DNA from: Gemmatimonadota bacterium
GTDB lineage: Bacteria > Gemmatimonadota > Gemmatimonadetes > JACCXV01
DNA: 44,036 bases
Assembly: GCA_046262075.1 (NCBI GenBank)
Contig: JBHENL010000106.1
Coordinates: 1 to 44,036, forward strand
Direction: 5' to 3'
Part shown: piece by piece, positions 2,805 to 43,321 of the stretch
Layout of the letters: each line of letters opens with the position of its first letter
Position numbering within the stretch: position 1 is the stretch's first letter
The notes under the pieces: generated by a model
Told to the model about the DNA's origin: nothing
What the model saw: only the letters and a program-made list of their open reading frames with translations
Database searches by the model: none
Made by a program: the position numbers and the translations under genes

Positions 2805-2839
2805 GCCGCCTCCTCGCTCCCGGCGCTGCCTTCGCCGCG

Positions 2840-14262: not shown

Positions 14263-14309
14263 GCGGCGCGGGCCCGCCTCGCCGGCCGGAAGCCTCGCGA
14301 GCCGCGCGC

Positions 14310-23402: not shown

Positions 23403-24266
23403 TCAGCGGTCCCAGGCGAAGCTCCGCCCCAGGAGCTGATAGAGCCGCTCGTTCTGTGGGCGGAACTGCTCCACCAGCCGCGCGCGGGTGGCGGGATGCA
23501 TGGGCGGGTAGCTGTAGGCGTGGTGGCGTACCCGCGTCGCGAGCGGGACGGGCCGCAGGCCGAGGAAGCGCTGCACCGCCTCGAACGCGCCCTGCGGATC
23601 GGAGGTGAGCCGCGAGGACTCGAGCACCAGCAGCTGCTCGCGCGGGAAGAGCGCCAGCCAGCGCTCCAGCTGCTCGGCGTAGCGCCCACGTGCCTGATAC
23701 GAGTAGCGCAGCAGGCGCCGCGCGTCGTGATCGGGATCCCGTGCCAGACGCCGCCGCTCTCCGCGCAACCGCTCCGGCTCGCGCTCGAGCGCGGCTTCGA
23801 AGGACAGCGGCTCGTAGCCCCAGCGGACCCCGTGCTGGTAGTGGGAGTACGCCCGGTCCACGGGGTTGCGCAGCAGAGCGATGAGCCGTGCGTCCGGAAG
23901 GGTCTGGCGCACGCGCCCCGGAACCAGCGGGTGGAACACGTAGGAGGGGCTCGCCTCACCCGTCAGCCGTCCCCGCCGGCGGCCGGCCCGCAGCGGGAAG
24001 TGGCCGCGGTACCAGTCGGGACCGCGCGACCAGTTGTGATCGAAGAAATGGACCTCCTTGACGAGGGCGGGCGCCACGTCGGGATGAGCGGCGAGCCAGC
24101 GGAAGACCGAGGTCGTCGCGGACTTCTGCACCCCCACCACCAGGAAGTCGGGGAGCGGTCGCCAGCGGCGGGTCAGCCGCAGGCCGGGCGCCAGCACGGC
24201 CATGCGCGCGCGCTGCAGCGTGGGCCCGTGGCCGTGTCGCCGGAGGATGTCGGCCGGCGACCTCAT
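23403..24266 (-). CDS. sulfotransferase, Sulfotransfer_1-like (ST-A)
   Basis: Frame of ORF 23403..24710 trimmed to the ATG at 24266 (ATGA overlap with the dtd stop). 5'-PSB motif FLVVGVQKSATTS and 3'-PB motif LLRNPVDRAYSHY. Confidence 0.8.
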   Translation of the reverse strand: MRSPADILRRHGHGPTLQRARMAVLAPGLRLTRRWRPLPDFLVVGVQKSATTSVFRWLAAHPDVAPALVKEVHFFDHNWSRGPDWYRGHFPLRAGRRRGRLTGEASPSYVFHPLVPGRVRQTLPDARLIALLRNPVDRAYSHYQHGVRWGYEPLSFEAALEREPERLRGERRRLARDPDHDARRLLRYSYQARGRYAEQLERWLALFPREQLLVLESSRLTSDPQGAFEAVQRFLGLRPVPLATRVRHHAYSYPPMHPATRARLVEQFRPQNERLYQLLGRSFAWDR

Positions 24267-28147: not shown

Positions 28148-28222
28148 TGGAGCCACCGAGCGGACTTGAACCTCTAACCTGCTGATTACGAATCAGCTGC
28201 TCTACCATTGAGCTACGGTGGC
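28148..28222 (-). tRNA. tRNA-Thr (anticodon CGU), CCA encoded
   Basis: The reverse complement folds by hand as a cloverleaf: acceptor GCCACCG/CGGTGGC, D arm GCTC-AATGGTA-GAGC, anticodon arm GCTGA-TTCGTAA-TCAGC (anticodon CGT), variable loop AGGTT, T arm AGAGG-TTCAAGT-CCGCT (one A.G mismatch), discriminator T, then CCA. Confidence 0.9.
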
Positions 28223-28643: not shown

Positions 28644-28841
28644 ATGAGATACCACATCGAGGGAGACCGGGTCGTGCTGGATCTCTCCTGGGAAGAGCTC
28701 GAGAAGATCCCGGAGGATCTGCCGGTCCATTGGGAGGTCGGCACCGGCTACGTCATGCCGAACGATCCCGAGGTCCTCGCTCGGGTCAAGGACGCCGTGC
28801 GGCGGCCGCTGCAGCCGCGCGTGCGCGAGCTCATCCGCTGA
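28644..28841 (+). CDS. hypothetical small acidic protein (65 aa)
   Basis: ATG-initiated ORF preceded by a locally AT-richer stretch (..cgtaaaggtagtcgagcgATG). MRYHIEGDRVVLDLSWEELEKIPEDLPVHWEV... No motif recognised. Confidence 0.4.
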   Translation: MRYHIEGDRVVLDLSWEELEKIPEDLPVHWEVGTGYVMPNDPEVLARVKDAVRRPLQPRVRELIR

Positions 28842-28982
28842 CTCCGCCGGCAGGCGGCTTCGGCCGCTGCCGGGTCAGCAGACCGTGACGACGAGCGCTC
28901 CGCCACCGCGGGGCGCTTCCGTTTTCCTCCGGCTCGCACGTTCGCGCTTCCCTGCCGCGCTCCCGGCGCCTAAGCTCCGTGC

Positions 28983-29126
28983 GTGGACGTCCTCGCGCTC
29001 GGCATCCTGCTGCCTCTCGTTCCGCTCTTCCTGGCCCCGCTCGTCCTCGTGGCCGCCGTGTGGATGAACCGCCGGCGCCGCGTTCACGGCGCGGGGCGTC
29101 CTCGAGCCAAACGCACCCGGAGCTGA
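28983..29126 (+). CDS. possible 47-aa single-pass membrane peptide
   Basis: Not in the ORF track (under 60 aa). GTG at 28983 is the first start after an in-frame TAA at 28971. VDVLALGILLPLVPLFLAPLVLVAAVWMNRRRRVHGAGRPRAKRTRS is one hydrophobic helix followed by an Arg/Lys-rich tail. No obvious RBS. Confidence 0.25.
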   Translation: MDVLALGILLPLVPLFLAPLVLVAAVWMNRRRRVHGAGRPRAKRTRS

Positions 29127-29175
29127 GGCTCGCGCGTGTCGGCCGATCGCCGGGACGGCGCACGCGGTGTCCTTC

Positions 29176-30738
29176 TCACGTCGTGCCCGGTGACGCCGTA
29201 CCGCTCGTCTCCTGCGCGAGACGCTCGAGCCGCCGCGCGACGCCCGGAGGAAACCGCTTCGACCCCACCAGGCTCCCCAGCAGGAGCACCGCCCGGCTGC
29301 CGTCGGCTCCCAGCACGAACGCCGGGCGTAGGAGCAGCGCCGCCGCCAGGGCCACGCCTGTGACGCCGAACGTCAGCAGGAGAAGCGGCGCGGGCGGCAG
29401 GACCTCGACCAGAGCGGAACGCACGGGCCATGCACAGGCGATGGCCAGCCCGGCGAGCGTCAGGCCCGGGAGCTGAGACCGCAGGTAGTCGCCCCAGCCG
29501 CACTCGAGCGGCCGCAGGCTCATGGCCGCCGCCAGGACGTAGTTGACCAGCACCGCGCCGAGGATGCCCACGGAGACGCCCGGGAGCCCCCAGCGCAGCC
29601 CGGCGAGGCTGCCGGCCAGCACCAGACCGGCGTAGACCGCCTCGCGCTTGCTGCGCTCGTACATGATGCCCAGCGCGCGAGCCAGCGAGTCGCCCGTCAT
29701 GTAGCCGGCGCGAAACAGAATGCCCACCGAGAGGATCTGGAAGGGCAGCACGGCGGCGTCCCAACCGGGCCCGAGGAGCACGCGCACGAGCTCCGGAGCG
29801 GTGATCACGAGGAGCGCGCTGAGCGGCGCCGTCACGAGCGCGATGATCGCGGAGCCGGTCAGGTACGTCGTTCGCAACCGTCCCGGCTGGTCCTGCATCC
29901 GCGCCATCACCGGGAAGAGTACCTTCGTCAGCACGCGCGCGAAGTAGGCGACGGGGAGCATCATCAGGCGGTACGCGCGCGTGTAGAGACCCAGCGCGCC
30001 GGCGCCCAGGACCCGGCCCACCACGAGGTAGTCGCCCTGGTTGCCGACGTAGTTGAAGACGCGCGCGAGGGTGAAGCCTCCCGCCAGCGACAGGAGCTCG
30101 CCCGCTTCCTTGCGCGCCACGAGCGGGCGGCGCGGATGCGGGCGCAGGGTGCAGACCACGGCCGAGCGGATCAGGTGCTGCCCCCAGGACCCGCCCACGA
30201 GGGCCCAGGGCCCGAAGCCCAGCGCCGCCAGGACGATCGCCGTCAGGCTGGTGCCGAGCGAGAGCGCCGCCACGTCCGCCCAGAGCAGCTTGCCGTACTC
30301 CAGCTCGCGCTCGAGCAGCGCCTGAGCGACGACCCCCAGGCTCACGAGCACGAAGTTGAAGCTGAGCGCGCGGATGATCGGGATCACGGCTTCGGTCCGG
30401 AAGAACCGCCCCATCCACGGAGCGATCCCCCATCCGACCAGCGTCATCAGGACGCCCATCGCGAGCGAGAGCGTGACCGCGACGCGGACGTGCTCGGGGC
30501 TCAGCTCCCGCCGCTGGATGAGTGCGGGGGCGACCCCCATCTGCGAGAGCAGCGCCGCGAAGCCCACGAAGACGGTGGCCATGCCGATCAGCCCGAAGTC
30601 CTCCGGGCGCAGCAGCCGCGAGAGGACCGCCAGCGTGACCACGCCGAGCACGGCCTGCACCAGCACGAACGTGTACTGAGAGGCGAGACCCAGGAAGGTG
30701 GAGCGGAGGAGCGCCCGGCGCGGGGGGGCGCTGCTCAC
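29176..30738 (-). CDS. Wzx-like polysaccharide/oligosaccharide flippase (MOP superfamily)
   Basis: Frame of ORF 29176..31773 trimmed to GTG 30738 (GTGA overlap with the GT4 stop). ..ALLRSTFLGLASQYTFVLVQAVLGVVTLAVLSRLLRPEDFGL.. About 12-14 TM segments, typical of the 'polysaccharide biosynthesis protein' family. Confidence 0.8.
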   Translation of the reverse strand: MSSAPPRRALLRSTFLGLASQYTFVLVQAVLGVVTLAVLSRLLRPEDFGLIGMATVFVGFAALLSQMGVAPALIQRRELSPEHVRVAVTLSLAMGVLMTLVGWGIAPWMGRFFRTEAVIPIIRALSFNFVLVSLGVVAQALLERELEYGKLLWADVAALSLGTSLTAIVLAALGFGPWALVGGSWGQHLIRSAVVCTLRPHPRRPLVARKEAGELLSLAGGFTLARVFNYVGNQGDYLVVGRVLGAGALGLYTRAYRLMMLPVAYFARVLTKVLFPVMARMQDQPGRLRTTYLTGSAIIALVTAPLSALLVITAPELVRVLLGPGWDAAVLPFQILSVGILFRAGYMTGDSLARALGIMYERSKREAVYAGLVLAGSLAGLRWGLPGVSVGILGAVLVNYVLAAAMSLRPLECGWGDYLRSQLPGLTLAGLAIACAWPVRSALVEVLPPAPLLLLTFGVTGVALAAALLLRPAFVLGADGSRAVLLLGSLVGSKRFPPGVARRLERLAQETSGTASPGTT

Positions 30739-31886
30739 CGAGCCGAAAGCTCCTCGTAGATCTCCTGCAGCGCATCGACCGTGCGGCGCACGTCGTAGGC
30801 TGCGCTCCGTGCGTAAGCCTGCGCGGCGAGCCGTTGCGCCAGCGGCCGGTCGTCGAGGAGCCGCACGAGCGCGCCCGAGAGGGCGGCGGGGTCTCGGGGC
30901 GGCACCAGCAGCGCGGTCGCTTCGTGACTCAGGACCTCCGCCAACCCGTCGATGCGCGTGGCGACGATCGGCCGCCCCATGGCCATCGCCTCGAAGACCG
31001 TCAGCGGCGTGCCTTCCCAGATCGACGGGAAGGCCTGGACCTCCATGACCGATTGGAGGAGCGGGATCTCCGTCGCGAACCCCGCGAAGAGGACCCGGTC
31101 GGACACGCCCAGGCGCCGGCACTCGAGGCGGTGCCGTTCCATCAGCTCCCCTTCCCCGACGAGCAGCAGCCTGGCCTCGGGGTGTCGCTCGAGGACTGCC
31201 GGCCACGCGGCGATCAGGAACTCGACGCCCTTCTGCGCGTCGAGACGCCCCACGACCCCGACGATCCGGTCCTCGGGCCGCAGCCCCCACCGCCGGCGTG
31301 CCTCGGCGACCTCTGCCTGCGACCGCGGCCGGAACTCGTCGAGAGGCGCACCATTGAATACCACGCGGATCCGATCCGGGCGCATGAAGCGGCGCCGCAC
31401 CATGAACTCGCGCGTGGACTCCGAGACGGCGATCCCGACGTCGAGGATGGGCGCCATCAGCCGGTCCACGGCCGCCTGGTAGGCCGGGACGTGCGGGAAC
31501 GCCGCATGCTCGTGCAGGACGAGCTTCACGCGCTCGAGTCGCGCGATCGGCCGGCCGTAGTTGGCGCCCACGTAGCCGTGCACGTGGAGCACGTGCGGCC
31601 GGTGCCGCCGGACGAGCCGATGCAGCGCCGTCCAGGTCGTGGGATCGAACTTCCGCTTCCCCAGGGAGATCGAGTCGACGCCTTGGGAGGCGAGGAGGCG
31701 GGCCGACTCGTCCCGTCCCTTCAGATGAACGAGCTGCACGTCGAAGCGCGCGGCATCGAACCGGGGCATCCACCAGGAGAAGAGTCGGGAGACGCCGTGC
31801 ATCCGCGAGCCGCGTACCCCGAACTTGTCGCAGACGTGCATCACGCGGATTCGCCCGTCGCCGCCGGATCCGGGACGCGCGCTCAC
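30735..31886 (-). CDS. glycosyltransferase family 4 (GT-B, retaining type)
   Basis: Frame of ORF 30735..32678 trimmed to GTG 31886 (GTGA overlap with the ST-B stop; the ATG at 31841 is an alternative). GRLDAQKG, and the E-x7-E motif EGTPLTVFEAMAMGRPIVAT. Confidence 0.85.
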   Translation of the reverse strand: MSARPGSGGDGRIRVMHVCDKFGVRGSRMHGVSRLFSWWMPRFDAARFDVQLVHLKGRDESARLLASQGVDSISLGKRKFDPTTWTALHRLVRRHRPHVLHVHGYVGANYGRPIARLERVKLVLHEHAAFPHVPAYQAAVDRLMAPILDVGIAVSESTREFMVRRRFMRPDRIRVVFNGAPLDEFRPRSQAEVAEARRRWGLRPEDRIVGVVGRLDAQKGVEFLIAAWPAVLERHPEARLLLVGEGELMERHRLECRRLGVSDRVLFAGFATEIPLLQSVMEVQAFPSIWEGTPLTVFEAMAMGRPIVATRIDGLAEVLSHEATALLVPPRDPAALSGALVRLLDDRPLAQRLAAQAYARSAAYDVRRTVDALQEIYEELSAR

Positions 31887-32818
31887 GCCACCTCCCGCCG
31901 CAGCGCGAAGCCGTAGGCCAGGAGCAGGGGCCAGGTCAGCGCCGTCACGAGCGTCCGCTGCCCGGCGGGCATGGCCTGCCGCCATTCGGTGTCCGCGCTG
32001 ACCGGCGTCCAGCCGCGCGTGAACCGCACCGGATTGCCGGCCACGAGGTGGTTCTCCGCCAGCTCGAGTCCGCCGTCGCGCAGGAAAGCCACGTCGGGTG
32101 ACGGCTCGCCGGTAGCGGAGATCACCCGCCGCAGCGCCTCGGCGGGGCGGCGCACGACGTCCTCGTAGCGCAGGCGCACGTAGCTCCGGGCACGCGACGC
32201 GAGGAGTCCGATCGCGGCGTTCTCCCGTGCCCAGTGAAACGCGCTTCGCGCCGGACTCTTCCGGGGCATGTGCTCCACCTTCCAGTGGACTTCCGGCAGG
32301 CGCTTCACACGCTGCCACGAGTGGGCGACGGCCCGGCTGTCGCGGACGACGTGCACGACGTGGAGCTCCACGTCGTGGGCGCTCGCCAGCGCGAGACCGT
32401 GCGTGGCGTACTTCGACGAGTCGACGACCAGGCGCGCTCCCGAGACGTCTGCCGCGGCGTGGAGGACACGTCCCAGCGCGTCCGCATAGGCCGCCAGCTC
32501 CCCGCGCGCCCGCTGCCCGCGGGACGCCCGCAGCAGGCGGGGCAAGGCGGCCGGGCGTGAGAGACGCTCCCGCACGGCGAGCATCGCACCCGCGTCGGGC
32601 ACGGCGCCCTCGCGGGCGAGGCGGTCGAGCACGCCACCCCAGAAGGGACAGTTCGAGAACGGCCGGAGGCAGCCGCACAGCTGGTTCTCCAGCATTCCCC
32701 GGTCCCAGAGGTAGCGCACCTCTCCGAGGGATCGGACGCCCGCGACATGGCCGAGCAAGAGGTCGAGCAGGGTGCTGCCGCTGCGGCTCCAGCTCGCGAC
32801 GAAGATCACGCGCGTCAC
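31883..32818 (-). CDS. sulfotransferase family protein (ST-B)
   Basis: 5'-PSB-like IFVASWSRSGSTLL at the extreme N-terminus, and 3'-PB-like HVVRDSRAVAHS. The GTG start at 32818 overlaps the ST-C stop (GTGA). Confidence 0.8.
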   Translation of the reverse strand: MTRVIFVASWSRSGSTLLDLLLGHVAGVRSLGEVRYLWDRGMLENQLCGCLRPFSNCPFWGGVLDRLAREGAVPDAGAMLAVRERLSRPAALPRLLRASRGQRARGELAAYADALGRVLHAAADVSGARLVVDSSKYATHGLALASAHDVELHVVHVVRDSRAVAHSWQRVKRLPEVHWKVEHMPRKSPARSAFHWARENAAIGLLASRARSYVRLRYEDVVRRPAEALRRVISATGEPSPDVAFLRDGGLELAENHLVAGNPVRFTRGWTPVSADTEWRQAMPAGQRTLVTALTWPLLLAYGFALRREVA

Positions 32819-33645
32819 GGCGACTCCGCGGGCGGGATCTCGAGCGCGGTGCCGGCGCAGAGGGGCGTCTCCGTCGGCAGGGCGGCCGGCGGCCTAAGCC
32901 GCTCGGGCTCGAGCAGGCTGTAGCCCCAGCGCCGCGCGTCGGCCTCCGAGCGACGCCCCACCCAGTGTGCGTAGGGGGCCCGCAGGGGGTTTTGCCGACG
33001 TCGTGCCCAGCGTTCGAAGTAGCGGGCGTTCGCGTCGCGGATGGGCAGGTCCGGCGTGTGCCGCGGCAGCCCCAGGAAGCGCAGCAGCTCGCGATGGATC
33101 TCCCGCGGCTCGGCCAGCCAGCACTCGTAGCGGACCACGAAGAGGCGGCGCAGCCGGGGCGCGTCTGCGCGCAGCGCCTCGTGACAGACGAACCAGTGGT
33201 CGAGGAGGCGATGGATCGGACGGTGCGACCACTTCCACGTCGCCAGCGACACCGCGAGGGGATGGCGGACGATCATGACGAACGCCGAGTCGGGGAACAA
33301 AGCCTGGAGGAAGCCCGCTCGCATGAGGTTCGGCGGTGATTTTTCCAGCAGGATCCTGCGCGAGAGGTCCCAATGCGGCGTCCACGCCGAGAGCAGACGG
33401 CGCGTCGCGTCGCGCGAGACGAGCGCGGAGTCCTCCGTCAGGTGCGCCTCCTCGTGGAACCCGAACCGGCCGGGCCCGCCCAGCGCGCGCGCCGTGGGAT
33501 AGACGTCCTGCAGGTGCTGGCCCTCGTCCTCGGGCGCACCGGTGCCGCGAAGGCCGCTCACGTCCGGATGCTCGGCCAGGACGCGGGCGAGCAGCGACGT
33601 GCCGCTCCGGTGCAGCCCGCCTACGAAGACGTATCGCGGAGACAC
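32815..33645 (-). CDS. sulfotransferase family protein (ST-C)
   Basis: Frame of ORF 32815..34230 trimmed to GTG 33645 (VSPRYVFVGGLHRSGTSLLARVL...). 5'-PSB GGLHRSGTS. The 3'-PB region deviates (MIVRHPLAVSLA). Confidence 0.75.
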   Translation of the reverse strand: MSPRYVFVGGLHRSGTSLLARVLAEHPDVSGLRGTGAPEDEGQHLQDVYPTARALGGPGRFGFHEEAHLTEDSALVSRDATRRLLSAWTPHWDLSRRILLEKSPPNLMRAGFLQALFPDSAFVMIVRHPLAVSLATWKWSHRPIHRLLDHWFVCHEALRADAPRLRRLFVVRYECWLAEPREIHRELLRFLGLPRHTPDLPIRDANARYFERWARRRQNPLRAPYAHWVGRRSEADARRWGYSLLEPERLRPPAALPTETPLCAGTALEIPPAESP

Positions 33646-33761
33646 GCGGGTCAGCGAAGCCTGAGCTCCTGCAAGGAAGTGACCCGCGGCTCGGGGTGGG
33701 CACGAGACGTCACGCGCCGGGACTGCGCGAGCAACACGCCCGGAGCGGGAAATCCCGCGGC

Positions 33762-34100
33762 CTAGGCCGGACCCTCGGTGAGACGGCTGTAGGAGCTGAA
33801 CGGGAGCAGGTCGCGGAAGCGGCGCTCCCACGTCTCGAGCTCGTGGTCGTCTCGCCGGAAACGGGGACGGCCGTCGAGATAGTAGCGCCATCCCGGCGGC
33901 GTGATGCGTACGGCCGGCGAGATGCCGCCTTCGGAGCGGCAACGCAGCATTTCGAGGAGCCCCAATCCCTGAAGCGCCACGAGCTGCCGAGTGAGCGTGA
34001 TCCGATCCGTGGAGAAGATCTGGCCCAGGCGTTCGAGCGAAACGGCGCTCGTGCTCTGGGCACATATCTCCAGGATCAGTTGGACGAAATCGGCCAACAC
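33762..34100 (-). CDS. small winged-helix (MarR-like) DNA-binding protein candidate
   Basis: 112 aa. SLERLGQIFSTDRITLTRQLVALQGLGLLE resembles the recognition helix and wing of the MarR/wHTH family. The region is locally less GC-rich. It sits upstream of, and co-directional with, ST-C/ST-B/GT4/Wzx, and is divergent from GT2. Confidence 0.45.
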   Translation of the reverse strand: MLADFVQLILEICAQSTSAVSLERLGQIFSTDRITLTRQLVALQGLGLLEMLRCRSEGGISPAVRITPPGWRYYLDGRPRFRRDDHELETWERRFRDLLPFSSYSRLTEGPA

Positions 34101-34250
34101 GTCTCTCGCGTCGGAGTGGGGTGTCCAATGTGCTCCCCCGCTTCGAGGGCCGCAAGCACGGGACGTCCTCCGGGAGTGCCGAGGAGCGGGAAGACGCGCT
34201 CCGCCGCGGGGATCGCGCGGCTCGCGCCACGGAGGTAATCTCCCTCCGCC

Positions 34251-35312
34251 ATGCAGCGACGCCCGACAGCGACTCCCGAGTCCCTACCGCCCGTCACGAT
34301 CGGCGTCGTCTCGCACAACACCGAAGCGGTGATCGGCGACTGCCTGGATTCCTTGACACGTCTCGACTATCCCCGTTACGAGCTCCTGTTCGTCGACAAC
34401 GCCTCGAGCGACGGCACCCCGCACCGAATCCGCGAGCGTTTCCCCGGAGCACGCCTGATCCGGCTTGCGAAGAACGAGGGGCCGAACCCGGCCCGGAACC
34501 TGATCCTGCGGACCGCGGCGCACCGGCACGTCCTGCTGGTCGAGGACGATGTCCTCTTCGAGCCGGGGGCGCTGCGCGGTCTCGTTGCAGCCATGACCGC
34601 TGACCCTCGATGCGGCATCGCCATGGGACGCATCCTCTTCGCGGATTCCGGCGCGATCCAGTACAGCGACATCCACCCGCACTTCCTCGGCGAGGTCACG
34701 ATCCGGAACCAGGGAAAGCCGCCGGCAGCCTGCACGTCGGCGACTCGCCCGACGACGCTCGCGCCCGGCTGCTTTCTACTCGTCGACAGAGTCAAGGCGA
34801 GCGAGATCGGCGGGTTCGACGAGTACTACGTGTTCGGCAAGGAGGACAGCGACTTCGCCTTCCGCATGACCCTGGCCGGGTACACGAACCTGGAGGTCCC
34901 CGCGACCCTGGTCCGGCACAAGGTCAAGCCGCGCGGCTTCACGCGCTCCTACCATCAGCTCCGAAACCGCTGGTACTGGATCCTGAAGCTCTTCTCGACC
35001 CGCACGCTCCTGCTGACGGCACCCGCGCTACTCGTCCACGAGCTGGTCACCCTGGCTTTCTTCGTGAGAGCGCGCCAGCTCGGGGATTATTCGAGGGCCC
35101 TCGCCGCGTTTCCCGCGAGTCTGCCCGAGGCGCTGCGCGCGCGGCGGCGCACGCTGGCTCTCAAGTGCGTGCCGGACCGGGCCGTCCTCACGGCGGAGGC
35201 CATGCAAGTGCGGAGCGATGTCCTGCGACCCGGCTCGACCGCGTGGAAGCTGAAGCGGAATTACGATGCGGGGATGGCGCTGTACTGGCGGTTGGTGCGC
35301 CGGTTGCTTTGA
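34251..35312 (+). CDS. glycosyltransferase family 2
   Basis: ITIGVVSHNTEAVIGDCLDSL..LLFVDNASSDGT..LLVEDDVLF (GT-A fold with DxD). GGAGG lies 16 nt upstream of the ATG. Confidence 0.85.
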   Translation: MQRRPTATPESLPPVTIGVVSHNTEAVIGDCLDSLTRLDYPRYELLFVDNASSDGTPHRIRERFPGARLIRLAKNEGPNPARNLILRTAAHRHVLLVEDDVLFEPGALRGLVAAMTADPRCGIAMGRILFADSGAIQYSDIHPHFLGEVTIRNQGKPPAACTSATRPTTLAPGCFLLVDRVKASEIGGFDEYYVFGKEDSDFAFRMTLAGYTNLEVPATLVRHKVKPRGFTRSYHQLRNRWYWILKLFSTRTLLLTAPALLVHELVTLAFFVRARQLGDYSRALAAFPASLPEALRARRRTLALKCVPDRAVLTAEAMQVRSDVLRPGSTAWKLKRNYDAGMALYWRLVRRLL

Positions 35313-35353
35313 CCGCCCGAGTCTCGGGCGAGCGTCCCCCGGGACTGGCGAGA

Positions 35354-36442
35354 CTACGGCGAACGCTTCGGGAGAGACCTCTTCATTCTGCCGAGGCGGC
35401 GCACGAGATTGCCGGCCGTGTGGAGGCCGTCCCCGACGTGCGATCGCAGCTCTTCCGTGCGGGTGGGGGCCGCCGCGGCGACCCCGAAGAGTCTTTCGTA
35501 CCCGAGATAGCCGAGGAGGTCTCCCGTGAGCCCCTCGAAGATCTCGATCTCGCGCGCCGTCAGCGTCTGGCGCCAGGCCTCGGCTCGCCCGCGTTGCGGC
35601 TCCCCGCCGATGAGGGCGTGATGCGCCGCGGTGTAGCGCGGGACTCGGAAACCCGTGGGGTTCCGCATCTCCGGCACGAAATCCAGCTCGAGAAAGTCGC
35701 AGAGGCTGCGTAGCGGAGCCTCCGAATCCACGAGCAGATCCTCGAAGCGCACTCTGCGGACGCGCGCTTCGCTCCAGCGGGCCTCCGCGGCGAGGCCGTA
35801 GGCCAGGTTCTTGGGCCACCAGGCGGCGGCATGTAGGATCGAGTTGGGCCCCCAATCCAGGGGAAGGACGGACGCCGCCACTCCACGTCCGTCGCGGACG
35901 AGATGGATCATCTTGGCCGTCTCGAAGCGCTCGAACAGCGTGTGGGCGTAGCGCGTATTCCCGGGCGTGTGATCCACCCACACGTCAGCCTGGGGCTTTC
36001 CGACGGCGGCGGCGTAGCCGCGCACCAGGCTCTCCAGCGTGAGGCGATACCTCTCCGGCGCTGCACCGTGGCCGGTCTCCGGCAGGTCCTCGAGATCGAC
36101 GTTCCAGAATCGATACCGCCAGTGGCGCTGGAGCGCCGCCGCGATTTCGGAGCGCGGGGGACCGCCTCCGGCCCAGGAGCACTCGCGCAGCAGCTCGATC
36201 TTGAAGGGCATCTCCGGCACACAGACGCACGCCGGGTGAGCGCCGAGCATGGCACCCAGCATCGTCGTCCCGCTCCGCGGGCAGCCCCCGATGAAGACCG
36301 CCTTCAAGGGACCTCCCGTCACCTCGGTCGGCCCGCTCGTGGAAGGCGCCGACTCGGGGTCGACGCTCTGGGCCAGGGAGCGCTCTTCATCTGGCGCGTC
36401 GGAACGACCCAGCCAGCCTCCTGCGCGCGGCGAACGCCACAT
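35354..36442 (-). CDS. sulfotransferase family protein (ST-D)
   Basis: 5'-PSB AVFIGGCPRSGTTML and 3'-PB HLVRDGRGVAAS. The start is ambiguous. The ATG at 36442 overlaps the ST-E 3' end by 56 nt. GTG 36322 (VTGGPLKAVFIGG...) gives an N-terminus like those of the paralogues. Confidence 0.75.
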   Translation of the reverse strand: MWRSPRAGGWLGRSDAPDEERSLAQSVDPESAPSTSGPTEVTGGPLKAVFIGGCPRSGTTMLGAMLGAHPACVCVPEMPFKIELLRECSWAGGGPPRSEIAAALQRHWRYRFWNVDLEDLPETGHGAAPERYRLTLESLVRGYAAAVGKPQADVWVDHTPGNTRYAHTLFERFETAKMIHLVRDGRGVAASVLPLDWGPNSILHAAAWWPKNLAYGLAAEARWSEARVRRVRFEDLLVDSEAPLRSLCDFLELDFVPEMRNPTGFRVPRYTAAHHALIGGEPQRGRAEAWRQTLTAREIEIFEGLTGDLLGYLGYERLFGVAAAAPTRTEELRSHVGDGLHTAGNLVRRLGRMKRSLPKRSP

Positions 36443-37424
36443 GGTCGAGGCTCTTGACGAGGTGCACCGGGTCCGCCGCCACGGAACGCGCCTTACGAAG
36501 TGGGGCTTCGACCCTCCGGCGGAAGAACTCCTCCATCGGCGAAAGCGTGGCCTGCGGCACCACGCGCTCATAGCCGTAGCGCTCCAGCGTGCGCCCTGCC
36601 ACGGCCTCGAAGATGCGCATCTCCCCCACGCTCATCGCCGTGCGCCACTTCTCCACGTTTCCGCGGAGCAGCGGCCGCCGCAGGTTCGCGGCGTTCACCT
36701 CCTCCCGGCGATACCGCCCCTCGTCCCGGTGGTACTCGAGCATGTCGGGGACGAACGTCTCCCCCAGGAACTCGCAGACCCGGGTCAGCTCTCGCTCCGG
36801 GTTCGCCAGCAGATCTTCGTAGCGCAGCACGAAAGCGCCGGCACTGCCACCGGCGACGTCGAGCCGCTCCACGCGCTGGACGTACGCTGCCCAGCGCCCG
36901 GCCGCGGCGTACACGCTCTTGGGGCCGAAGGATGCGCGCAGCGTGGAGAGTGCGACATCACGCCCGTCGCGGATGATGTGGACCGCCTTGGCTCCCGGAA
37001 AACACGTGCGGATCTGCCGCCAGTACCGGACGTGCTGCGGGGTCTTCTCGCCCCACCGCGCCTTGCCGCGGTCGCGTGCCCACGTTCCCAGGAGCGCGCC
37101 GACGATTCCGCCGAAATCGTGCTCGCCGATCGAGGCCAACACACGATCGCGGTCGGGCCGAGGAGACCAGAACGCCACGGGGCGCCGATGCAGCATGTCG
37201 GTGACCATGCGCTCACGGCACGCGCGGTGGCTCAGATCGCCATAGTGGTTTCGCAGCGGGTAGAAGCGGGTGAAGAGATGCGACTCGTTGGGAATCGCGA
37301 TGCGCGGATGCTGGTCCAGCATGCGTGACAGGAGCGACGTGCCCGAACGCGGGCAGCCGAACACGAAGAACGGTGGCTCCCCGGCCTCGTGCAGGGTCTG
37401 GCGAGTCGCATCGGGAGCGTTCAT
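36387..37424 (-). CDS. sulfotransferase family protein (ST-E)
   Basis: 5'-PSB FFVFGCPRSGTSLL and 3'-PB HIIRDGRDVALS. 345 aa. Confidence 0.8.
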   Translation of the reverse strand: MNAPDATRQTLHEAGEPPFFVFGCPRSGTSLLSRMLDQHPRIAIPNESHLFTRFYPLRNHYGDLSHRACRERMVTDMLHRRPVAFWSPRPDRDRVLASIGEHDFGGIVGALLGTWARDRGKARWGEKTPQHVRYWRQIRTCFPGAKAVHIIRDGRDVALSTLRASFGPKSVYAAAGRWAAYVQRVERLDVAGGSAGAFVLRYEDLLANPERELTRVCEFLGETFVPDMLEYHRDEGRYRREEVNAANLRRPLLRGNVEKWRTAMSVGEMRIFEAVAGRTLERYGYERVVPQATLSPMEEFFRRRVEAPLRKARSVAADPVHLVKSLDHVAFAARRRLAGSFRRAR

Positions 37425-37525
37425 GGACTGGAACGCAGCGTCAGGGTAGCCGCCGGCGCGTCAGCGGAGTCAGTCCGCGAGCCGAACCCAGGGATTCCCT
37501 CCGCCGACGAAACCCGAGCCCGTCC

Positions 37526-38416
37526 TCAAGGTTGGTATCCCAGCTCGAGGAGCAGGTCCTGCTGGAGCGCGGTGACGCGCTCGATCTGCTCGGGGGTGAA
37601 CCGGCTGCGCCATTTGTCGTTCCTGCTCTCGAGCCGTTCGGGGAAGCGCTCGATCACGGCGGGTCCCGCCGGCAGCTCCGCGAACGAGAACGCCCTACCC
37701 AGGACCCCGCGGCAATCACGGCAGAGGTCCTCGTAGCGGAATTCATGATAGCGCCCGTCCAGCGCGTCACGCGTGGCGCGCACGTGGCTCACGATCCTGA
37801 CCCAATCCAATGCCGCGTGCTCCAACGGATCCGCCGGTCCGCGCGGGTCCCCACCTTCCGGGGGCTTCACGAACTTCATCCCGAATTCCTCGCGCAGGCG
37901 CCACATCGACTCGGCGACCGCGCGGCCATCCCGGATCACGTGCACGAATACGGCATCCGGGAACACGGCGCGAACGAAGTCGATGCGGATTGAGTTGAAG
38001 GGCGACTTGTTGAAGAAGCGCTTGGCGTGGTGGAGCCACTGGTGGAACGCGAAGCGCGAGTGCAGCCGCTCGACCTCCTCGGGAGTGGCGTCGTGCGCCG
38101 TTCGGACGTCGCTCTTCGGCAGCCGACCCTGCAGCAGGCCCGGATCCCACACCGCGCGAGCCTCCGAGAGATTCGCGACGTCCGGATGTGCGGCGAAGAG
38201 TCGCGTCGCGATCGTGGTGCCCGATCGCGGCGAGCCGATCATGAAGATGGGCCGGTCGAGCCGCTTGCCGCGTCCGAGCGTGCGGCGCCACACCTGGTAG
38301 AGCGGATATTGGAGGGCCCACCGCGCCTGGGGCCCGAGCTCCTTTCCGCGCAGGGCGGACGGCGCGAGACGCTTGAGCGTCTCGTTCATCGCAGTCCGGC
38401 GGAAGTCGGCGCTCAT
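37526..38416 (-). CDS. sulfotransferase family protein (ST-F)
   Basis: Frame of ORF 37526..38989 trimmed to the ATG at 38416 (MSADFRRTAMNETLKRL...). 5'-PSB IFMIGSPRSGTTI and 3'-PB HVIRDGRAVAES. Confidence 0.8.
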   Translation of the reverse strand: MSADFRRTAMNETLKRLAPSALRGKELGPQARWALQYPLYQVWRRTLGRGKRLDRPIFMIGSPRSGTTIATRLFAAHPDVANLSEARAVWDPGLLQGRLPKSDVRTAHDATPEEVERLHSRFAFHQWLHHAKRFFNKSPFNSIRIDFVRAVFPDAVFVHVIRDGRAVAESMWRLREEFGMKFVKPPEGGDPRGPADPLEHAALDWVRIVSHVRATRDALDGRYHEFRYEDLCRDCRGVLGRAFSFAELPAGPAVIERFPERLESRNDKWRSRFTPEQIERVTALQQDLLLELGYQP

Positions 38417-38442
38417 CGGCTCGACCCCGGGCAGGAGTTCCG

Positions 38443-39114
38443 TCAAACCAGCGCCGGGGCCGACACCTCGCGCGCCGACTGGAGCCATCCTTCGGCCTGC
38501 AGGTACTCGAGCACCCGCAGCGCGCTCTGCTCCGGGCTGTCGGGATGCGTGGTCAGGACGAGGCTCGCCTCCACCGGCGCCTCGTAGGGATCGCTCACGC
38601 CGGTGAAGTTCTTGATCTCCCCCGCCAGCGCCTTGGCGTAGAGGCCCTTCACGTCCCGCTCGATGCACACCTCCAGCGGACAGTCCACGAACACCTCGAT
38701 GAACCGCTCCGCGCCGACGATCGAGCGGGCCAGATCGCGCTCCTCGCGGTAGGGCGAGATCGCGGCGACCATCACCGGCACCCCATTCCTCACGAGCAGC
38801 TGCGAGACGAAGGCGATGCGGCGGATGTTCAGGTCCCGGTCCTGCTTGGTGAACCCGAGCTCGGGCGAGAGGTTCGCGCGCACCACGTCGCCGTCCAGGA
38901 TCTCGATGGACGTCCCCGACTCGCGGAACTGCCGCGCGAGGATCCGCGTGATCGTGGACTTGCCCGCGCCCGAGAGTCCCGTGAACCACAGCGCGAAACC
39001 ACCCCGCCCCGTCCCGCCGTGGCGTCCGTTCATGCCTGCCGTCCCGGTGGAGGTTGCGGCCGTGCCCGCGCCGTCCCGCGCGGCGGCCTGAATGTCGATT
39101 CGCCCCGCGTTCAC
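38443..39114 (-). CDS. cysC: adenylyl-sulfate (APS) kinase
   Basis: P-loop FTGLSGAGKST, LDGDVVR, and ..FTGVSDPYEAP. The start is either GTG 39114 (GTGA overlap with the sat stop) or the ATG at 39033 (MNGRHGG...). Confidence 0.9.
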   Translation of the reverse strand: MNAGRIDIQAAARDGAGTAATSTGTAGMNGRHGGTGRGGFALWFTGLSGAGKSTITRILARQFRESGTSIEILDGDVVRANLSPELGFTKQDRDLNIRRIAFVSQLLVRNGVPVMVAAISPYREERDLARSIVGAERFIEVFVDCPLEVCIERDVKGLYAKALAGEIKNFTGVSDPYEAPVEASLVLTTHPDSPEQSALRVLEYLQAEGWLQSAREVSAPALV

Positions 39115-40334
39115 GAGGCGGCCCCCGCGGCGCGGTAGTGACGGCCGAGGATCTCGGCGATCTCCACGCGCGTGAACTCCAGCGGCAGCGGCTCGCCCGC
39201 GGCCAGGTTCTCCCGTACCTGCGTGCCGCTCAGCATGACCCGCTGCTGAGACGGGTGTGGGCAGGTCTTCTCGGAGGCCATGTGGCCGCAGCTGCGGCAC
39301 CAGAACGTGTTGTCGAAGAAGAGCGGCGTGATTCCCAGGTCCGCGGCCGGAATGTCGCGCAGCAGCTCCTGCGCGGCGTACGTCCCGTAGTAGCCCCCCA
39401 CGCCCGCGTGGTCGCGGCCAACGATGAAGTGCGTGCAGCCGTAGTTCTTCCGCGCCAGCGCGTGGAACACTGCCTCGCGCGGACCGGCATAGCGCATGGC
39501 CGCCGGATAGACGCCCATCAGCGTCCGCCGCGCGGGATAGTAGTTCTCGAGCAAGGCCTCGTAGCAGCGCATGCGCACCTCGGCGGGCACGTCCTCCGAG
39601 CGCGTCTCCCCCACCAGCGGGTGCAGGAAGAGCCCGTCCACGATCTCGAGCGCGCACTTCTGGATGTACTCGTGCGCGCGATGGATCGGATTGCGGGTCT
39701 GGAACGCCACGACCGTCCGCCAACCGCGCTCCGCGAAGAGCGCGCGGGACTCGAGCGGACGGCTGGGGTAGCCGGGATACGGCGCGGGGATCGCATCGGG
39801 GATGAGCGTGATGGCGCCCGCCAGGTTCAGCGTGCCTCCGGACACCAGGCGCGCGACGCCGGGATGCTTCGTCTCTTCGGTGCCGTAGACCCGCCGCGCC
39901 TCGCGGAGCGGATCGATGCGGTAGCGCTCCTCGATCTCGATCCAGCCCACCGGCTTCCCCTCGGGGCTTTCGAGGACCAGCACGTGGGGCGTGCGCCCCG
40001 CCGCGTGCTCCTCGTCCGTGACGGTGAGCGTCACCGGGATCGGCCACAGCGTGCCGTCCTCCAGCCGCATGTCCTCGACGACCGTCTGCCAATCGCGGGA
40101 GCCTAGGAACCCCGTCAGCGGACTGAACGCGCCGCAGGCGATGAGGACCGCGTCGGAGAGCTGGTGGGCGGTGAGCCGCACGCGGCCGGCGCCGCGCCAG
40201 TTCTCGAGCACCTGTGCCGTCTCCTCAGCTGTGGCCCAGCGCTGGACCAGCGCGCCGCCGTGGGCTGGACGAGGCGTCGTCTTACCGGCGCTCGCCGGCT
40301 CCATGTCGGTGACTTGGGACGATATGGCAGGCAT
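39111..40334 (-). CDS. sat: sulfate adenylyltransferase (ATP sulfurylase, homo-oligomeric Sat type)
   Basis: FQTRNPIHRAHE and HFIVGRDHAGVG motifs, with a PUA-like N-terminal domain. 407 aa. Confidence 0.9.
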   Translation of the reverse strand: MPAISSQVTDMEPASAGKTTPRPAHGGALVQRWATAEETAQVLENWRGAGRVRLTAHQLSDAVLIACGAFSPLTGFLGSRDWQTVVEDMRLEDGTLWPIPVTLTVTDEEHAAGRTPHVLVLESPEGKPVGWIEIEERYRIDPLREARRVYGTEETKHPGVARLVSGGTLNLAGAITLIPDAIPAPYPGYPSRPLESRALFAERGWRTVVAFQTRNPIHRAHEYIQKCALEIVDGLFLHPLVGETRSEDVPAEVRMRCYEALLENYYPARRTLMGVYPAAMRYAGPREAVFHALARKNYGCTHFIVGRDHAGVGGYYGTYAAQELLRDIPAADLGITPLFFDNTFWCRSCGHMASEKTCPHPSQQRVMLSGTQVRENLAAGEPLPLEFTRVEIAEILGRHYRAAGAAS

Positions 40335-40627: not shown

Positions 40628-43321
40628 CTACTTCACGTTGATGATGACCGCGGGCGAGTACCGGGACGCTTTACCGTTGGAGAGCTTTCTCAACCTCGCG
40701 CGGAACTGATACTTGCCGATTCCTATATCCGGCGTGAAGCTCGTACCGAGGACGGTCTGGGCCGTCAACCAGGGGGAGAACACGGTGGCTCCCGGGCGGC
40801 GGATCTGCACGTCGACGACATATCCGGAAGGCAGACTCGACGCCCACACGAGCTGGAAGGTGGTCGTGGTCTTTCCCGAGGTGGGCGTCACGCGGACCGG
40901 CAGCTTCACGCTGCCGTAGACCGACGTGTGCTTGGCGCAGTTGTACAGGTAGGAGCCGGCCACCGTGAACGGGAACGAATACTTCGCGCCTGACGCCTGA
41001 ACTCCCGAATCGAACAGCGCCATGCCGGATTTATCCTTGATTCCGTGCAGACCTGACCCGTCGAAGCTCCACTGTACGATTATCCCGAACGCTGCCCGCA
41101 GAGCGCTCGGTGAGAATTGGGTGTCGAGCACCGACACGATCGAGGTCGGCATGGACGAGACGGTGATGCTGGCGTTCGTGCCCGCGCTGGCCCCGTCGTC
41201 GTCGGTCACCGTCAGGCGCACGGTGTAGGTGCCGCCCGTGGCGTAGCTGTGCGATGGGTTGCGAAGGGCCGAGACGGCGCTGTCGCCGAAGTCCCAGCTC
41301 CAGGCCGCCAGCGTCCCGTCGCTGTCGGAGCTGCCGTCCGTGAAGCTGCACGAGAGCCCCGAGCAGGCGGACGTGAACGCCGCCGTCGGCGGATTGTTCG
41401 CCGCCGAGACGGTGATCGACTGGTTCGTCATGGCGCTCGCGCCGTCGTCGTCCGTCACCGTCAGCCGCACCGTGTACGTCCCGCCCGTGGCGTAGCTGTG
41501 CGAGGGGTTGCGCACGCTAGAGGTGCCACCGTCGCCGAAGTCCCAGCTCCAGGCCGCCAGCGTCCCGTCGCTGTCGGAGCTGCCGTCGGTGAAGCTGCAC
41601 GAGAGCCCCGTGCAGGCCGGGGTGAACGCCGCCGTCGGCGCCGCGTTCGCGGCCTGCACCGTCACGGCCTGGCTCGTCACGGCGTTCGCCCCATCGTCGT
41701 CGGTGACCGTCAGCCGCACCGTGTACGTGCCCCCCACGGCGTATGTGTGCGATGGATTGCGCACGCTCGACGTCGCACCGTCGCCGAAGTCCCAGCTCCA
41801 GCTCGCCAGCGTCCCGTCGCTGTCGCTGCTGCCGTCGGTGAAGCTGCACGAGAGCCCCGTGCAGGCCGAGGTGAACGCCGCCGTCGGTGCGGCGTTTGCG
41901 GCCGAGCTGTCACCCTGCAGGACCGCGAGGCGTTGATCCAGGTCCGTTCGAGTTCCCGCGTAGGCAGGGTCGTTCACGGCGTTCGTCAGCTGCCACGGGT
42001 CCGCCGCCAAATCGTAGAGCTCACGGTCTCCGTTGTCGTACTCCACATAGACGTACCGTTGTGTGCGGATCGCGCTGAACTGTCGCTTCACATCCAGGTT
42101 CCCGCTCGCGTCACCGACCATTTGCTCCAGAAGCGCATCGTCGCGCCAGCTAAGCTGCGGGTTCTGCAGCATCGCGACCATGCTCTGGCCGTCGACGCTC
42201 GCGGGCACCGGGAGCCCCGCCCAAGTGGCGATCGAGGGCGCGAGGTCCACGTTGAGCAGCACCCGGTCCTCGACGCGCGGGAGGACGCCCGGTGCCTTCA
42301 CCACGAACGGCACCCGCGTGCAATCCTCGTAGACGCAGGCCTTCGGCTTCCAGCGGTGCGCGCCGAGTGCTAGGCCATTGTCGGACGTGAAGATCACCAC
42401 GGCGTTGTTCCACCGGCCGGTGCGCTGGAGCGCATCCGCGATCGCCGCCACCCCCCGATCCACGGGCTGCAGGGACCGGAGCATCTTGCGATACAGCACG
42501 TCCAGGGCGCTGATCGAGTCGGCGGGCAGCTGGGGACGCTGCTGGACCCACTGTGGCTTGTCCGATACGTCCGCCTCGTTGAAATTCGGCGGACGCCAGA
42601 TGTCGCTCGGGAACTTGTCTTTGTCCTCCGCGACGAAATCCGCCGGCTCATGGGGTGCGAACGGCGTGTACATCAGGAACAGGGGCGTGCCCGCGGGGGT
42701 GGACTCGATGAACTCGACCGCCTTGTCCGTCAGCACGTCCGTCGAATAGATGCCCGCGCCGCCGTAATACACTTCCACTCCGTCCTCCACGAGCGTGAAC
42801 GGCCGGTAGTCCGGGGTGTGGAACGCCACCCAGCGATCCCATCCCGGAGGGACGTACGGCCATGGGAGGATCCGCTTGTACTCGTTCATGTACTTGCCGA
42901 TGAGAGCCGTGCGGTAGCCGGCGGCGTCGAGCCAGGTCGCGAGGGTCGAGGTGTCGTTGAACTTCGTGGCCCCGCCTCTCGGCGCGTCGTTGCTGAGCAC
43001 GCCGTGGGTGTGGACGAACTGGCCGGTGAGGATCGAGGCGCGGCTCGGGCAGCAGATGGCCGTCGAGACGAGGAAATTCGTGCCACTGACGCCCGTGCGG
43101 GCCAGCAGGGAATCCACCGCCGGCATGACGTCCAGCGTGTAATGCGGCTGATCGTCGGTGAGGATGAGCACGACGTCGTGCCGGGTCTGCGCGTGGGTCG
43201 GGGCGACGGACAGCGCGAGGGCGATCAGCGCCGTCAGGACGGATGGCAACCCGCTCCGGGCGCCGGGCCGAAACTCCAGCGGTGGCCTCGGCGCCGGGCG
43301 CACGCGCCGGCAGCCCCTCAT
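40628..43321 (-). CDS. secreted Cys-type (formylglycine) sulfatase fused to 3 PKD repeats and a cupredoxin-like/Ig-like C-terminal module
   Basis: Frame of ORF 40628..43495 trimmed to the ATG at 43321 (MRGCRRVRPAPR...LIALALSVAPTHAQ signal peptide). Metal site VVLILTDDQ. FGly motif STAICCPSRASILTGQ. Three 83-aa repeats (..SCSFTDGSSDSDGTLA.WSWDFGD...GTYTVRLTVTDDDGA..). The tail contains ..FDSG...AGSYLYNCAKHTSVYGSVKL. Confidence 0.85.
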   Translation of the reverse strand: MRGCRRVRPAPRPPLEFRPGARSGLPSVLTALIALALSVAPTHAQTRHDVVLILTDDQPHYTLDVMPAVDSLLARTGVSGTNFLVSTAICCPSRASILTGQFVHTHGVLSNDAPRGGATKFNDTSTLATWLDAAGYRTALIGKYMNEYKRILPWPYVPPGWDRWVAFHTPDYRPFTLVEDGVEVYYGGAGIYSTDVLTDKAVEFIESTPAGTPLFLMYTPFAPHEPADFVAEDKDKFPSDIWRPPNFNEADVSDKPQWVQQRPQLPADSISALDVLYRKMLRSLQPVDRGVAAIADALQRTGRWNNAVVIFTSDNGLALGAHRWKPKACVYEDCTRVPFVVKAPGVLPRVEDRVLLNVDLAPSIATWAGLPVPASVDGQSMVAMLQNPQLSWRDDALLEQMVGDASGNLDVKRQFSAIRTQRYVYVEYDNGDRELYDLAADPWQLTNAVNDPAYAGTRTDLDQRLAVLQGDSSAANAAPTAAFTSACTGLSCSFTDGSSDSDGTLASWSWDFGDGATSSVRNPSHTYAVGGTYTVRLTVTDDDGANAVTSQAVTVQAANAAPTAAFTPACTGLSCSFTDGSSDSDGTLAAWSWDFGDGGTSSVRNPSHSYATGGTYTVRLTVTDDDGASAMTNQSITVSAANNPPTAAFTSACSGLSCSFTDGSSDSDGTLAAWSWDFGDSAVSALRNPSHSYATGGTYTVRLTVTDDDGASAGTNASITVSSMPTSIVSVLDTQFSPSALRAAFGIIVQWSFDGSGLHGIKDKSGMALFDSGVQASGAKYSFPFTVAGSYLYNCAKHTSVYGSVKLPVRVTPTSGKTTTTFQLVWASSLPSGYVVDVQIRRPGATVFSPWLTAQTVLGTSFTPDIGIGKYQFRARLRKLSNGKASRYSPAVIINVK
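41159..41905. repeat. three tandem 249-bp near-identical repeats (encode the PKD domains)
   Basis: Period of 249 bp, read from the anchor gtcccagctcca at 41291, 41540 and 41789. A 48-nt string (gtcccagctccaggccgccagcgtcccgtcgctgtcggagctgccgtc) is identical at 41291 and 41540. Confidence 0.85.

Follow-up and report, generated by a model that had tools for sequence, protein, structure and literature searches.

Genetic data on a bacterial sulfated exopolysaccharide (EPS) are available for one system only, synechan of Synechocystis sp. PCC 6803, a Wzx/Wzy-dependent polymer made by the xss cluster, for which the accepted model has sulfation in the cytoplasm followed by flipping, and of which the OPX gene sits outside the xss cluster (PMC8205485). 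Carbohydrate sulfotransferases (STs) have also been described in rhizobia, namely NodH and NoeE, which act on Nod factor, and KpsS of Mesorhizobium loti, NodH being a member of PF13469; a 2024 review counted six bacterial genera with sulfated polysaccharides (PMC11625862). In papers from 2021 to 2026 such polysaccharides are still treated as in essence a cyanobacterial trait that a few marine bacteria share (PMC8205485, PMC13390465, PMC13125312), and a 2026 paper, on the grounds of the Wzx/Wzy cluster wps-1 of Actinoplanes missouriensis with its two STs, raised the possibility of sulfated EPS in actinomycetes, a sulfation that is predicted rather than demonstrated and presented without chemistry (PMC13390465). 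No paper meaningfully tying Gemmatimonadota to sulfotransferases was found in the literature searched. Here, a locus is described from contig JBHENL010000106.1 of the metagenome-assembled genome (MAG) of an uncultured, soil-type member of the Gemmatimonadota, in which five STs, two glycosyltransferases (GTs) and a Wzx-like flippase are encoded next to sat and cysC, the genes for synthesis of 3'-phosphoadenosine 5'-phosphosulfate (PAPS), and next to a secreted sulfatase. The best model, which we hold to be moderately probable, is that accessory blocks, recruited beside the PAPS genes of a conserved backbone, make a lipid-linked glycan with O-sulfation at several positions. The contig was analysed over its entire length of 44,036 bp (the window), and all absences reported below hold for these 44 kb of the genome only.

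As mechanical lists of open reading frames (ORFs) are crowded at the G+C content of the window (72%), genes were called from third-position GC and then checked against Pfam and NCBIfam, and third-position GC frame plots backed the reading frame of each gene in the locus. The ATP sulfurylase gene sat (39111..40334, minus strand; NF003166, 1.6e-155, 517 bits against a cut-off of 387) and the APS kinase gene cysC (38443..39114, minus strand; PF01583, 8.5e-61, 205 bits) belong to the backbone, and their translations hold the motifs QTRNPIHRAHE, HFIVGRDHAG and GLSGAGKST. Between cysC and orf111, a gene for a small conserved backbone protein (33762..34097, minus strand), lies block 1 (34101..38442), consisting of ST-F (37526..38416; PF13469 1.2e-26, PF00685 1e-9), ST-E (36387..37424; PF13469 1.3e-35, PF00685 1.2e-12) and ST-D (35354..36307; PF13469 3.2e-30), all on the minus strand, and a GT2 gene on the plus strand (34251..35312; PF00535 4.6e-21, PF13641 5e-15), the product of which has one C-terminal hydrophobic segment in a hydropathy scan. 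The GT2 gene converges on ST-D, with stops at 35312 and 35354, respectively. Block 2 (28842..33761) lies between orf111 and a 65-aa ORF, orf65 (28644..28841, plus strand; no Pfam match), and comprises, all on the minus strand, ST-C (32815..33645; PF13469 3.4e-27), ST-B (31883..32818; PF13469 7e-10), a GT4 gene (30735..31886; PF13692 8e-37, PF00534 2e-34) and a MOP/PST-family (Wzx-like) flippase of 520 aa with around 12 hydrophobic segments in the hydropathy scan (29176..30738; PF13440 2.7e-74, 250 bits; PF01943 1.4e-31). In NCBIfam, the best match of GT4 is TIGR03088 (2e-46, under the cut-off), and the flippase matches PRK10459 (5e-60, under the equivalog cut-off). ST-B is the weakest of the ST calls, yet above the PF13469 gathering score (39.9 bits against a cut-off of 27). 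An additional ST, the heparan-sulfate-ST-like ST-A (23403..24266, minus strand; PF00685 1.2e-17), was found between dtd and maf, 5 kb from the main cluster, beyond glmS and outside the interval covered by an earlier, sequence-only reading of this DNA.

GTGA stop-start overlaps are present at 39111, 32815, 31883 and 30735, and the two runs sat-cysC-ST-F-ST-E-ST-D and ST-C-ST-B-GT4-flippase are each chained by stop-start overlaps or by gaps of at most about 100 nt, from which we infer two operons. Some starts have alternatives: TTG 36307 or GTG 36322 for ST-D, ATG 38416 or a TTG at 38446 overlapping the cysC stop for ST-F, and, for GT4, a GTG overlapping the ST-B stop or an ATG at 31841; GT4 and cysC could each also begin a few codons further downstream, and with these alternatives all overlap junctions would be at most about 80 nt apart. 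Five STs within 11 kb cannot be a chance arrangement. The sequence-only reading had proposed sat, cysC, ST-B to ST-F, both GTs and the Wzx-type flippase, the GTGA overlaps and the convergence of GT2 on the ST block, and the profile searches and frame plots agree with it on places and strands.

The history of the locus was read from relatives of its backbone. Ten homologues of orf111 were found (64-74% identity), and contigs carrying two of these led to five related metagenome contigs (L084-L088) with 70-87% nucleotide identity to the window. In these, sat, cysC, orf111, orf65 (on the opposite strand), the gene for tRNA-Thr and glmM (followed by glmS where the contig extends that far) are contiguous, and ST, GT and flippase genes are absent from 5/5 contigs; the spacing is approximately 100-180 nt between cysC and orf111, without block 1, and approximately 220 nt between orf111 and orf65, without block 2. 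Sat is 75-87% identical in relatives and CysC 76-79% in L084-L088, whereas orf65, which always lies between orf111 and tRNA-Thr, exceeds its neighbours with 82-89% in the five contigs; the position of tRNA-Thr is kept in L084 and L086-L088. The ST, GT and flippase genes are therefore best read as two insertions that split the conserved backbone, since the opposite account, two losses shared by every relative sampled, is less parsimonious. The sulfate-activation pair was already in place when the STs were added beside it, and sat-cysC did not arrive with the cluster; the sequence-only reading's term 'dedicated PAPS factory' does not hold in the light of this synteny. Upstream of sat, L085 carries a tRNA-Phe gene and DNA without a match to the window, and the sulfatase is therefore not in the shared backbone either. 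No close relative with the whole cluster was found, the best non-self matches being 54% for ST-E, 59% for ST-C and 64% for ST-A.

A genomic island at tRNA-Thr was considered and rejected, as the tRNA belongs to the backbone of the relatives and its 3' end points to glmM and away from the cluster; neither an integrase nor flanking direct repeats were found there. The orf111 gene, which the sequence-only reading took to encode a winged helix-turn-helix protein, proved to be a real conserved gene that trails cysC also in relatives without STs, but the label itself found no support: there was no match in Pfam or NCBIfam, a profile search against the PDB gave MarR at a non-significant E of 0.8-0.9, and the AlphaFold model (pLDDT 62) had a best Foldseek E of 6.6.

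All six STs exceed the gathering score of PF13469 or PF00685. The 5'-phosphosulfate-binding (5'-PSB) loop reads RSG[ST][ST] in ST-B to ST-F and QKSATT in ST-A, and the 3'-phosphate-binding motif RD[GS]RxVxxS occurs in ST-B, ST-D, ST-E and ST-F, ST-C having the variant RHPLAVSLA; an R-x7-S motif was found in ST-A, ST-B, ST-D, ST-E and ST-F. The motifs read SRSGST and RDSRAVAHS in ST-B, and ST-A has KEVHFF besides the loop. A Glu of ST-E aligns with the Glu of the EET motif of the tyrosylprotein sulfotransferases (TPSTs), the catalytic base of those enzymes, and a MAFFT alignment places a Glu there in all six STs; R26, S27, G28, E47, R152 and S160 of ST-E are invariant among 30 aligned homologues. 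The sequence-only reading had seen the loop in each of the five clustered STs and an RDGRxVxxS-type motif in most of them (four of five, as it turned out), and the loss of catalytic residues that it named as evidence against its own proposal was not observed, motifs and aligned Glu being kept. No hydrophobic segment or signal peptide was detected in the STs by the hydropathy scan, and they should therefore be cytoplasmic. ST-B carries a Cys-rich insert (LCGCLRPFSNCPFW; residues ~45-60, window 32650-32740) just after the 5'-PSB loop, which is absent from the other STs and could be a metal or disulfide site.

The six STs are less than 30% identical in pairwise comparisons, often with no detectable similarity, the exception being ST-C and ST-F (31% over 140 residues), and a recent tandem duplication was rejected on these grounds. 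As judged from their sequences, the STs of the window are six different enzymes and not an amplified gene, and their divergence points to different specificities. In NCBIfam their sole match was NoeE, at the level of motifs (22-43 bits against a cut-off of 500). Like the rhizobial enzymes they have the R-x-G type 5'-PSB of PF13469 and would depend on PAPS; the rhizobial STs likewise act on sugars, but modify lipo-chitooligosaccharides or capsule in plant symbionts.

The AlphaFold model of ST-E (pLDDT 86.8) gave 88 matches at E<=1e-3 in a Foldseek search of the PDB, the top ones with probability 1.00, and the best 50 of these 88 are all PAPS/PAP-binding proteins of the sulfotransferase fold (50/50); the predicted structure has this fold. 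Among the matches listed, TPST1/2 and the CurM ST domain are the closest solved structures, and a sequence search adds the polyketide ST domains of CurM/OLS; identity to the solved relatives is approximately 20% and the TM score 0.6-0.7. ST-E and the TPSTs have the same fold and agree in the PRSGT(T/S) loop, in the RDGR...S motif and in a Glu at the catalytic-base position, whereas TPSTs are Golgi enzymes acting on peptides and the context of the locus gives no hint of a peptide substrate. Since no glycan ST of PF13469 occurs among the PDB matches listed, the comparison cannot discriminate between acceptors, and an assignment of the ST-E acceptor from structure was rejected. Sequence and structure alone do not tell the acceptor of an ST, and more can be learned from the neighbourhoods in which homologues lie in other genomes.

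For ST-C, 401 genomic relatives were found, spread over many phyla (best identity 59%). The order ST-B, ST-C, ST-A was found by tblastn in around 20 loci from Gaiellales/Actinomycetes MAGs (similar loci among L002-L075), and one of these, L001 (Actinomycetes MAG, 5102-14486), was annotated as Wzz-Alg14-like-Alg13-like-ST-B-Wzy-ST-C-ST-A-Wzx-GH5. It is, to judge by its genes, a probable sulfated polysaccharide locus, seemingly undescribed. The L001 cluster has homologues of ST-A (42-52%), ST-B (35-41%) and ST-C (49-57%) as well as the flippase in common with the locus, and differs from it in having a polymerase, a chain-length regulator, a glycoside hydrolase and three STs, and no sat/cysC in the surrounding 20 kb. 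Homologues of ST-E among the closest (49-50% identity; from a Calditrichota MAG and others) have NDP-sugar epimerases/dehydratases, an Asn-synthase-type amidotransferase, an acetyltransferase and GT2/GT4 enzymes as neighbours. In an acidobacterial MAG (Ca. Polarisedimenticolaceae; L022, 7576-11712), a four-gene module GT4-flippase-ST-C-ST-B with 57-63% identity to block 2 (GT4 63%, ST-B 57%) is flanked only by housekeeping genes (amino-acid kinase and E1 dehydrogenase upstream, HflX and PyrF downstream), which suggests that the module is a mobile functional unit. The synechan STs are distant homologues only, with matches at 25-27% identity and E-values of 1e-13 to 3e-21; ST-A is 27% identical to XssA (E 3e-21) and ST-D 25% identical to XssE (E 4e-16), ST-D, ST-E and ST-F all being approximately 25% identical to the latter. 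Taken together, the Wzz/Wzy/Wzx context of L001, the sugar genes around ST-E homologues, the likeness to XssA/XssE and the L022 module favour, for the predicted enzymes, a saccharide acceptor on a lipid carrier.

Given this context, we regard it as very improbable that some or all of the STs act on acceptors other than glycans (tyrosine in secreted peptides, as with TPST or RaxST, lipids or small metabolites), with the GT and flippase genes as coincidental neighbours. The best PDB matches in sequence and structure, TPST1/2 and the CurM/OLS ST domains, would fit such a role, PF13469 also includes tyrosine sulfotransferases, and in Gemmatimonadales some homologues of ST-E stand alone amid housekeeping genes. 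However, the likeness to PDB entries, at the low identity and TM scores given above, is non-discriminating, and NodH, a carbohydrate ST, is likewise in PF13469 (PMC11625862). Genes for a precursor peptide, for type I secretion, or for a polyketide synthase or nonribosomal peptide synthetase are absent from the window, ST-B and ST-C are coupled by overlaps to GT4 and the flippase, and ST homologues are located in glycan clusters.

The frequency of such loci was estimated by rescanning 80 ST-C-anchored loci, of about 20 kb each, with the STs of the window, which gives approximate counts. One ST gene was found in 38 loci, two in 30, three in eight, four in three and five in one, the last being from a cultured actinomycete, Angustibacter sp. 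McL0619. Actinomycetota, Acidobacteriota and other phyla have loci with three to five STs, as well as ST loci that adjoin sat/cysC or a sulfatase, and in 5/80 loci (L004, L021, L035, L057 and L060) sat and/or cysC lie at most 10 kb from the ST-C homologue. L060 (Actinomycetes MAG, 2-11040) holds a sulfatase, a gene of no assigned family, an ST-C-like gene, genes for a methyltransferase and a radical-SAM enzyme, and cysC-sat, a second case of sulfatase, ST and PAPS genes together. The window thus tops the distribution of ST density but is not one of a kind. The sequence-only reading knew of no other locus with five STs, its own PAPS supply and an adjacent sulfatase in this kind of organism; such uniqueness is not supported, as multi-ST loci, some with sat/cysC or a sulfatase, are known from genomes of other phyla. 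The rarity of sulfated bacterial glycans lies in the experimental literature, not in genomes, and the present locus is unusually dense in STs, from an unexpected phylum and with a clear insertion history, but has many genomic parallels.

These data also bear on whether the region is one system at all. It could be an accretion hotspot, in which Sat and CysC work for general sulfur assimilation or for other STs, external sulfated glycans are what the sulfatase feeds on, and blocks 1 and 2 belong to separate pathways; we find this doubtful, though well worth keeping in mind. The backbone without blocks in five relatives is in line with it, and in a further related contig (L093) two ST-A-like genes stand right after glmS, for which reason the neighbourhood seems to collect STs, possibly by repeated independent gains. 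Histories may also differ, since third-position GC is 0.85-0.87 in block 1 and the sulfatase (0.85-0.86 in block 1) as compared to 0.90-0.96 in the backbone, block 2 being backbone-like, and a signal peptide together with PKD domains, as in the sulfatase, is typical of secreted degradative enzymes. On the other hand, the STs of block 1 stand directly downstream of cysC in the same orientation and with a minimal gap, so that read-through coupling of block 1 to PAPS synthesis is likely, the grouping of sulfatase, ST, cysC and sat recurs in L060, and proximity of ST-C loci to sat/cysC was seen in the five loci listed above.

Like the synechan genes, the STs of the locus stand with GT2, GT4 and Wzx genes, and the flippase is 27% identical to XssH. 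The xss cluster, unlike the locus, contains two STs, eight GTs, Wzy, a PCP, a priming GT and the regulators XssQ/R/S, and the last four components have no homologue in the window; the locus has five to six STs, two GTs, and adjoining sat-cysC and sulfatase genes, and belongs to another phylum. In tblastn searches of the window, homologues of XssF, XssP and XssK were not found, and XssQ, XssR and XssS gave nothing at E<=1e-3. The wps-1 cluster is, like the locus, a Wzx-type cluster from outside the cyanobacteria with STs of two families, but has two STs, its own Wzx, Wzy and Wzz, and genetic phenotypes in sporangium formation; adjacent PAPS genes or a sulfatase are not reported in the accessible part of the source (PMC13390465). 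All parts of the locus belong to known families, and it resembles a Wzx-type sulfated-glycan cluster, but is neither a complete Wzx/Wzy system nor an Xss unit.

Several observations weigh against a sulfated lipid-linked glycan as the product. Among the predicted genes submitted to Pfam, no PF04932 match (Wzy) was obtained, and the window genes gave no match to PF02397, PF00953, PF02706 or PF02563 (initiating phosphoglycosyltransferase, PCP, OPX). Two GTs face five to six STs; sat-cysC is kept without STs in relatives and is linked to the cluster by position only; the solved structures closest to ST-E are TPSTs and polyketide ST domains, not glycan STs; and an acceptor is not readable from sequence, the glycan product being a prediction for an uncultured MAG. 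Wzy, the priming transferase, PCP and OPX could be encoded elsewhere in the genome. Of the sequence-only proposal of a lipid-linked glycan that is sulfated before export, the enzymes, the expected location of the STs and the context of homologues have stood up, while a complete glycan system was not found, Wzy, priming, PCP and OPX genes being absent from the window. Because of this absence from the 44-kb contig, the product may be of any of several classes, be it EPS or O-antigen, a protein glycan or a glycolipid.

A short sulfated decoration (of lipopolysaccharide (LPS) or an O-unit, a protein glycan or a glycolipid) is a live alternative to an exopolysaccharide, seeing that five to six STs are matched by two GTs only and that the module of L022 stands alone. 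In its explicit form, this alternative has as product a short lipid-linked oligosaccharide destined for LPS/lipooligosaccharide or protein, or a sulfated glycolipid, with GT4, flippase and two STs as a self-contained decoration unit, and we judge it unlikely but deserving of attention. It would agree with the small number of GTs (two), with the absence of Wzy, PCP and OPX genes from the window and with the position of the L022 four-gene module alone between housekeeping genes. Weak NCBIfam matches of GT4 to glycolipid synthases and of the flippase to an O-glycosylation Wzx model point the same way. MOP flippases, however, normally serve polyprenyl-diphosphate-linked units that are later polymerised or ligated, homologues of ST-A, ST-B and ST-C occur with Wzy and Wzz in L001, and the missing genes may lie elsewhere, as the synechan OPX gene does (PMC8205485).

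In the favoured model of a multiply sulfated lipid-linked glycan, a polyprenyl-diphosphate-linked sugar would be primed by a transferase encoded elsewhere and extended by GT4 and GT2, and the five mutually divergent, PAPS-dependent STs of the cluster would sulfate the glycan at several positions in the cytoplasm, drawing PAPS from the neighbouring, co-oriented Sat and CysC. The MOP flippase would then carry the sulfated glycan over the inner membrane, polymerisation or ligation and export would be left to genes outside the contig, and the secreted sulfatase may trim or recycle sulfate esters. Both blocks would on this model act in a single pathway.

The sulfatase (40628..43321, minus strand), noted as adjacent in the sequence-only reading, lies upstream of sat and was confirmed as a secreted enzyme of S1 type (PF00884 1.3e-38; PF16347, SGSH_C, 5e-21; PF18911, PKD, three times), with a signal peptide, a CCPSR motif that fits the C/S-x-P-x-R signature of formylglycine-dependent sulfatases, SGSH_C, three PKD repeats and a C-terminal domain of approximately 170 aa that was not assigned to a family. 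Its best solved relatives are all carbohydrate sulfatases, the top one being the Bacteroides GlcNAc-6-sulfatase 5g2v (4e-43), the SGPSR of which aligns with CCPSR. The PKD domains are encoded by three tandem 249-nt repeats with 79-85% identity (window 41156-41902). A division of the 955-aa minus-strand ORF into two genes, considered because of a shift in second-position GC, was rejected in favour of a single sulfatase-PKD protein. No match to PF03781 or to radical-SAM families, which could indicate a sulfatase maturase (FGE/anSME), was found among the window genes scanned, and such a gene may lie elsewhere; the radical-SAM enzyme of L060 is possibly an anSME-type maturase. A cupredoxin-like motif, 'YNCAKHTSVYG', was observed in the last ~170 residues of the protein (40628-41150).

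A bolder extension, which we put forward as improbable, is that small, horizontally mobile sulfo-decoration modules (either one GT together with a MOP flippase and two STs, or one GT with three STs) have repeatedly been recruited beside the PAPS genes of soil bacteria, where they would jointly build a hypersulfated short glycan with more sulfates than sugars, the pattern of which would be edited outside the cell by the co-located, secreted GlcNAc-6-sulfatase-like enzyme. If true, this would be a bacterial counterpart of the 'sulfation code' of animal glycosaminoglycans with its Sulf-type editing, and sulfated envelope glycans would be no speciality of cyanobacteria but common across Gemmatimonadota, Actinomycetota and Acidobacteriota. 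Already the present data suggest that uncultured soil phyla harbour ST-bearing glycan clusters of the flippase type, and that such clusters can be assembled piecemeal next to the PAPS supply. The locus is as yet a prediction, made of known enzyme families on a MAG contig; if the chemistry is confirmed, the range of sulfated bacterial surface polymers widens, six divergent and probably regiospecific carbohydrate STs become usable for designer sulfated glycans, and nature provides a documented example of sulfation linked genetically to PAPS supply, which is what chiefly limits engineered production.

The left 28 kb of the window are ordinary housekeeping DNA, with ST-A as the sole exception, and contain alr, an aspS/lysS-type tRNA synthetase gene, rseP, dxr, cdsA, uppS, frr, pyrH, tsf, rpsB, rpsI, rplM, maf, dtd, glmS and a gene for a glmM-type mutase. 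The tRNA-Thr(CGT) gene (28148..28222, minus strand), between glmM and orf65, was identified with ARAGORN and Rfam, the latter giving nothing else in the window. A scan for promoters and terminators gave counts equal to shuffle expectation and was uninformative. A 179-aa ORF at the contig end (43492-44031, minus strand), with a weak coding signal and no Pfam match, is a candidate gene only. In a 1004-aa protein (6274-9288, minus strand), a peptidase-MA-like region occurs together with PD40/WD40-like beta-propeller repeats and, at the C-terminus, an Omp85-type domain, an architecture unusual for an outer-membrane protein.

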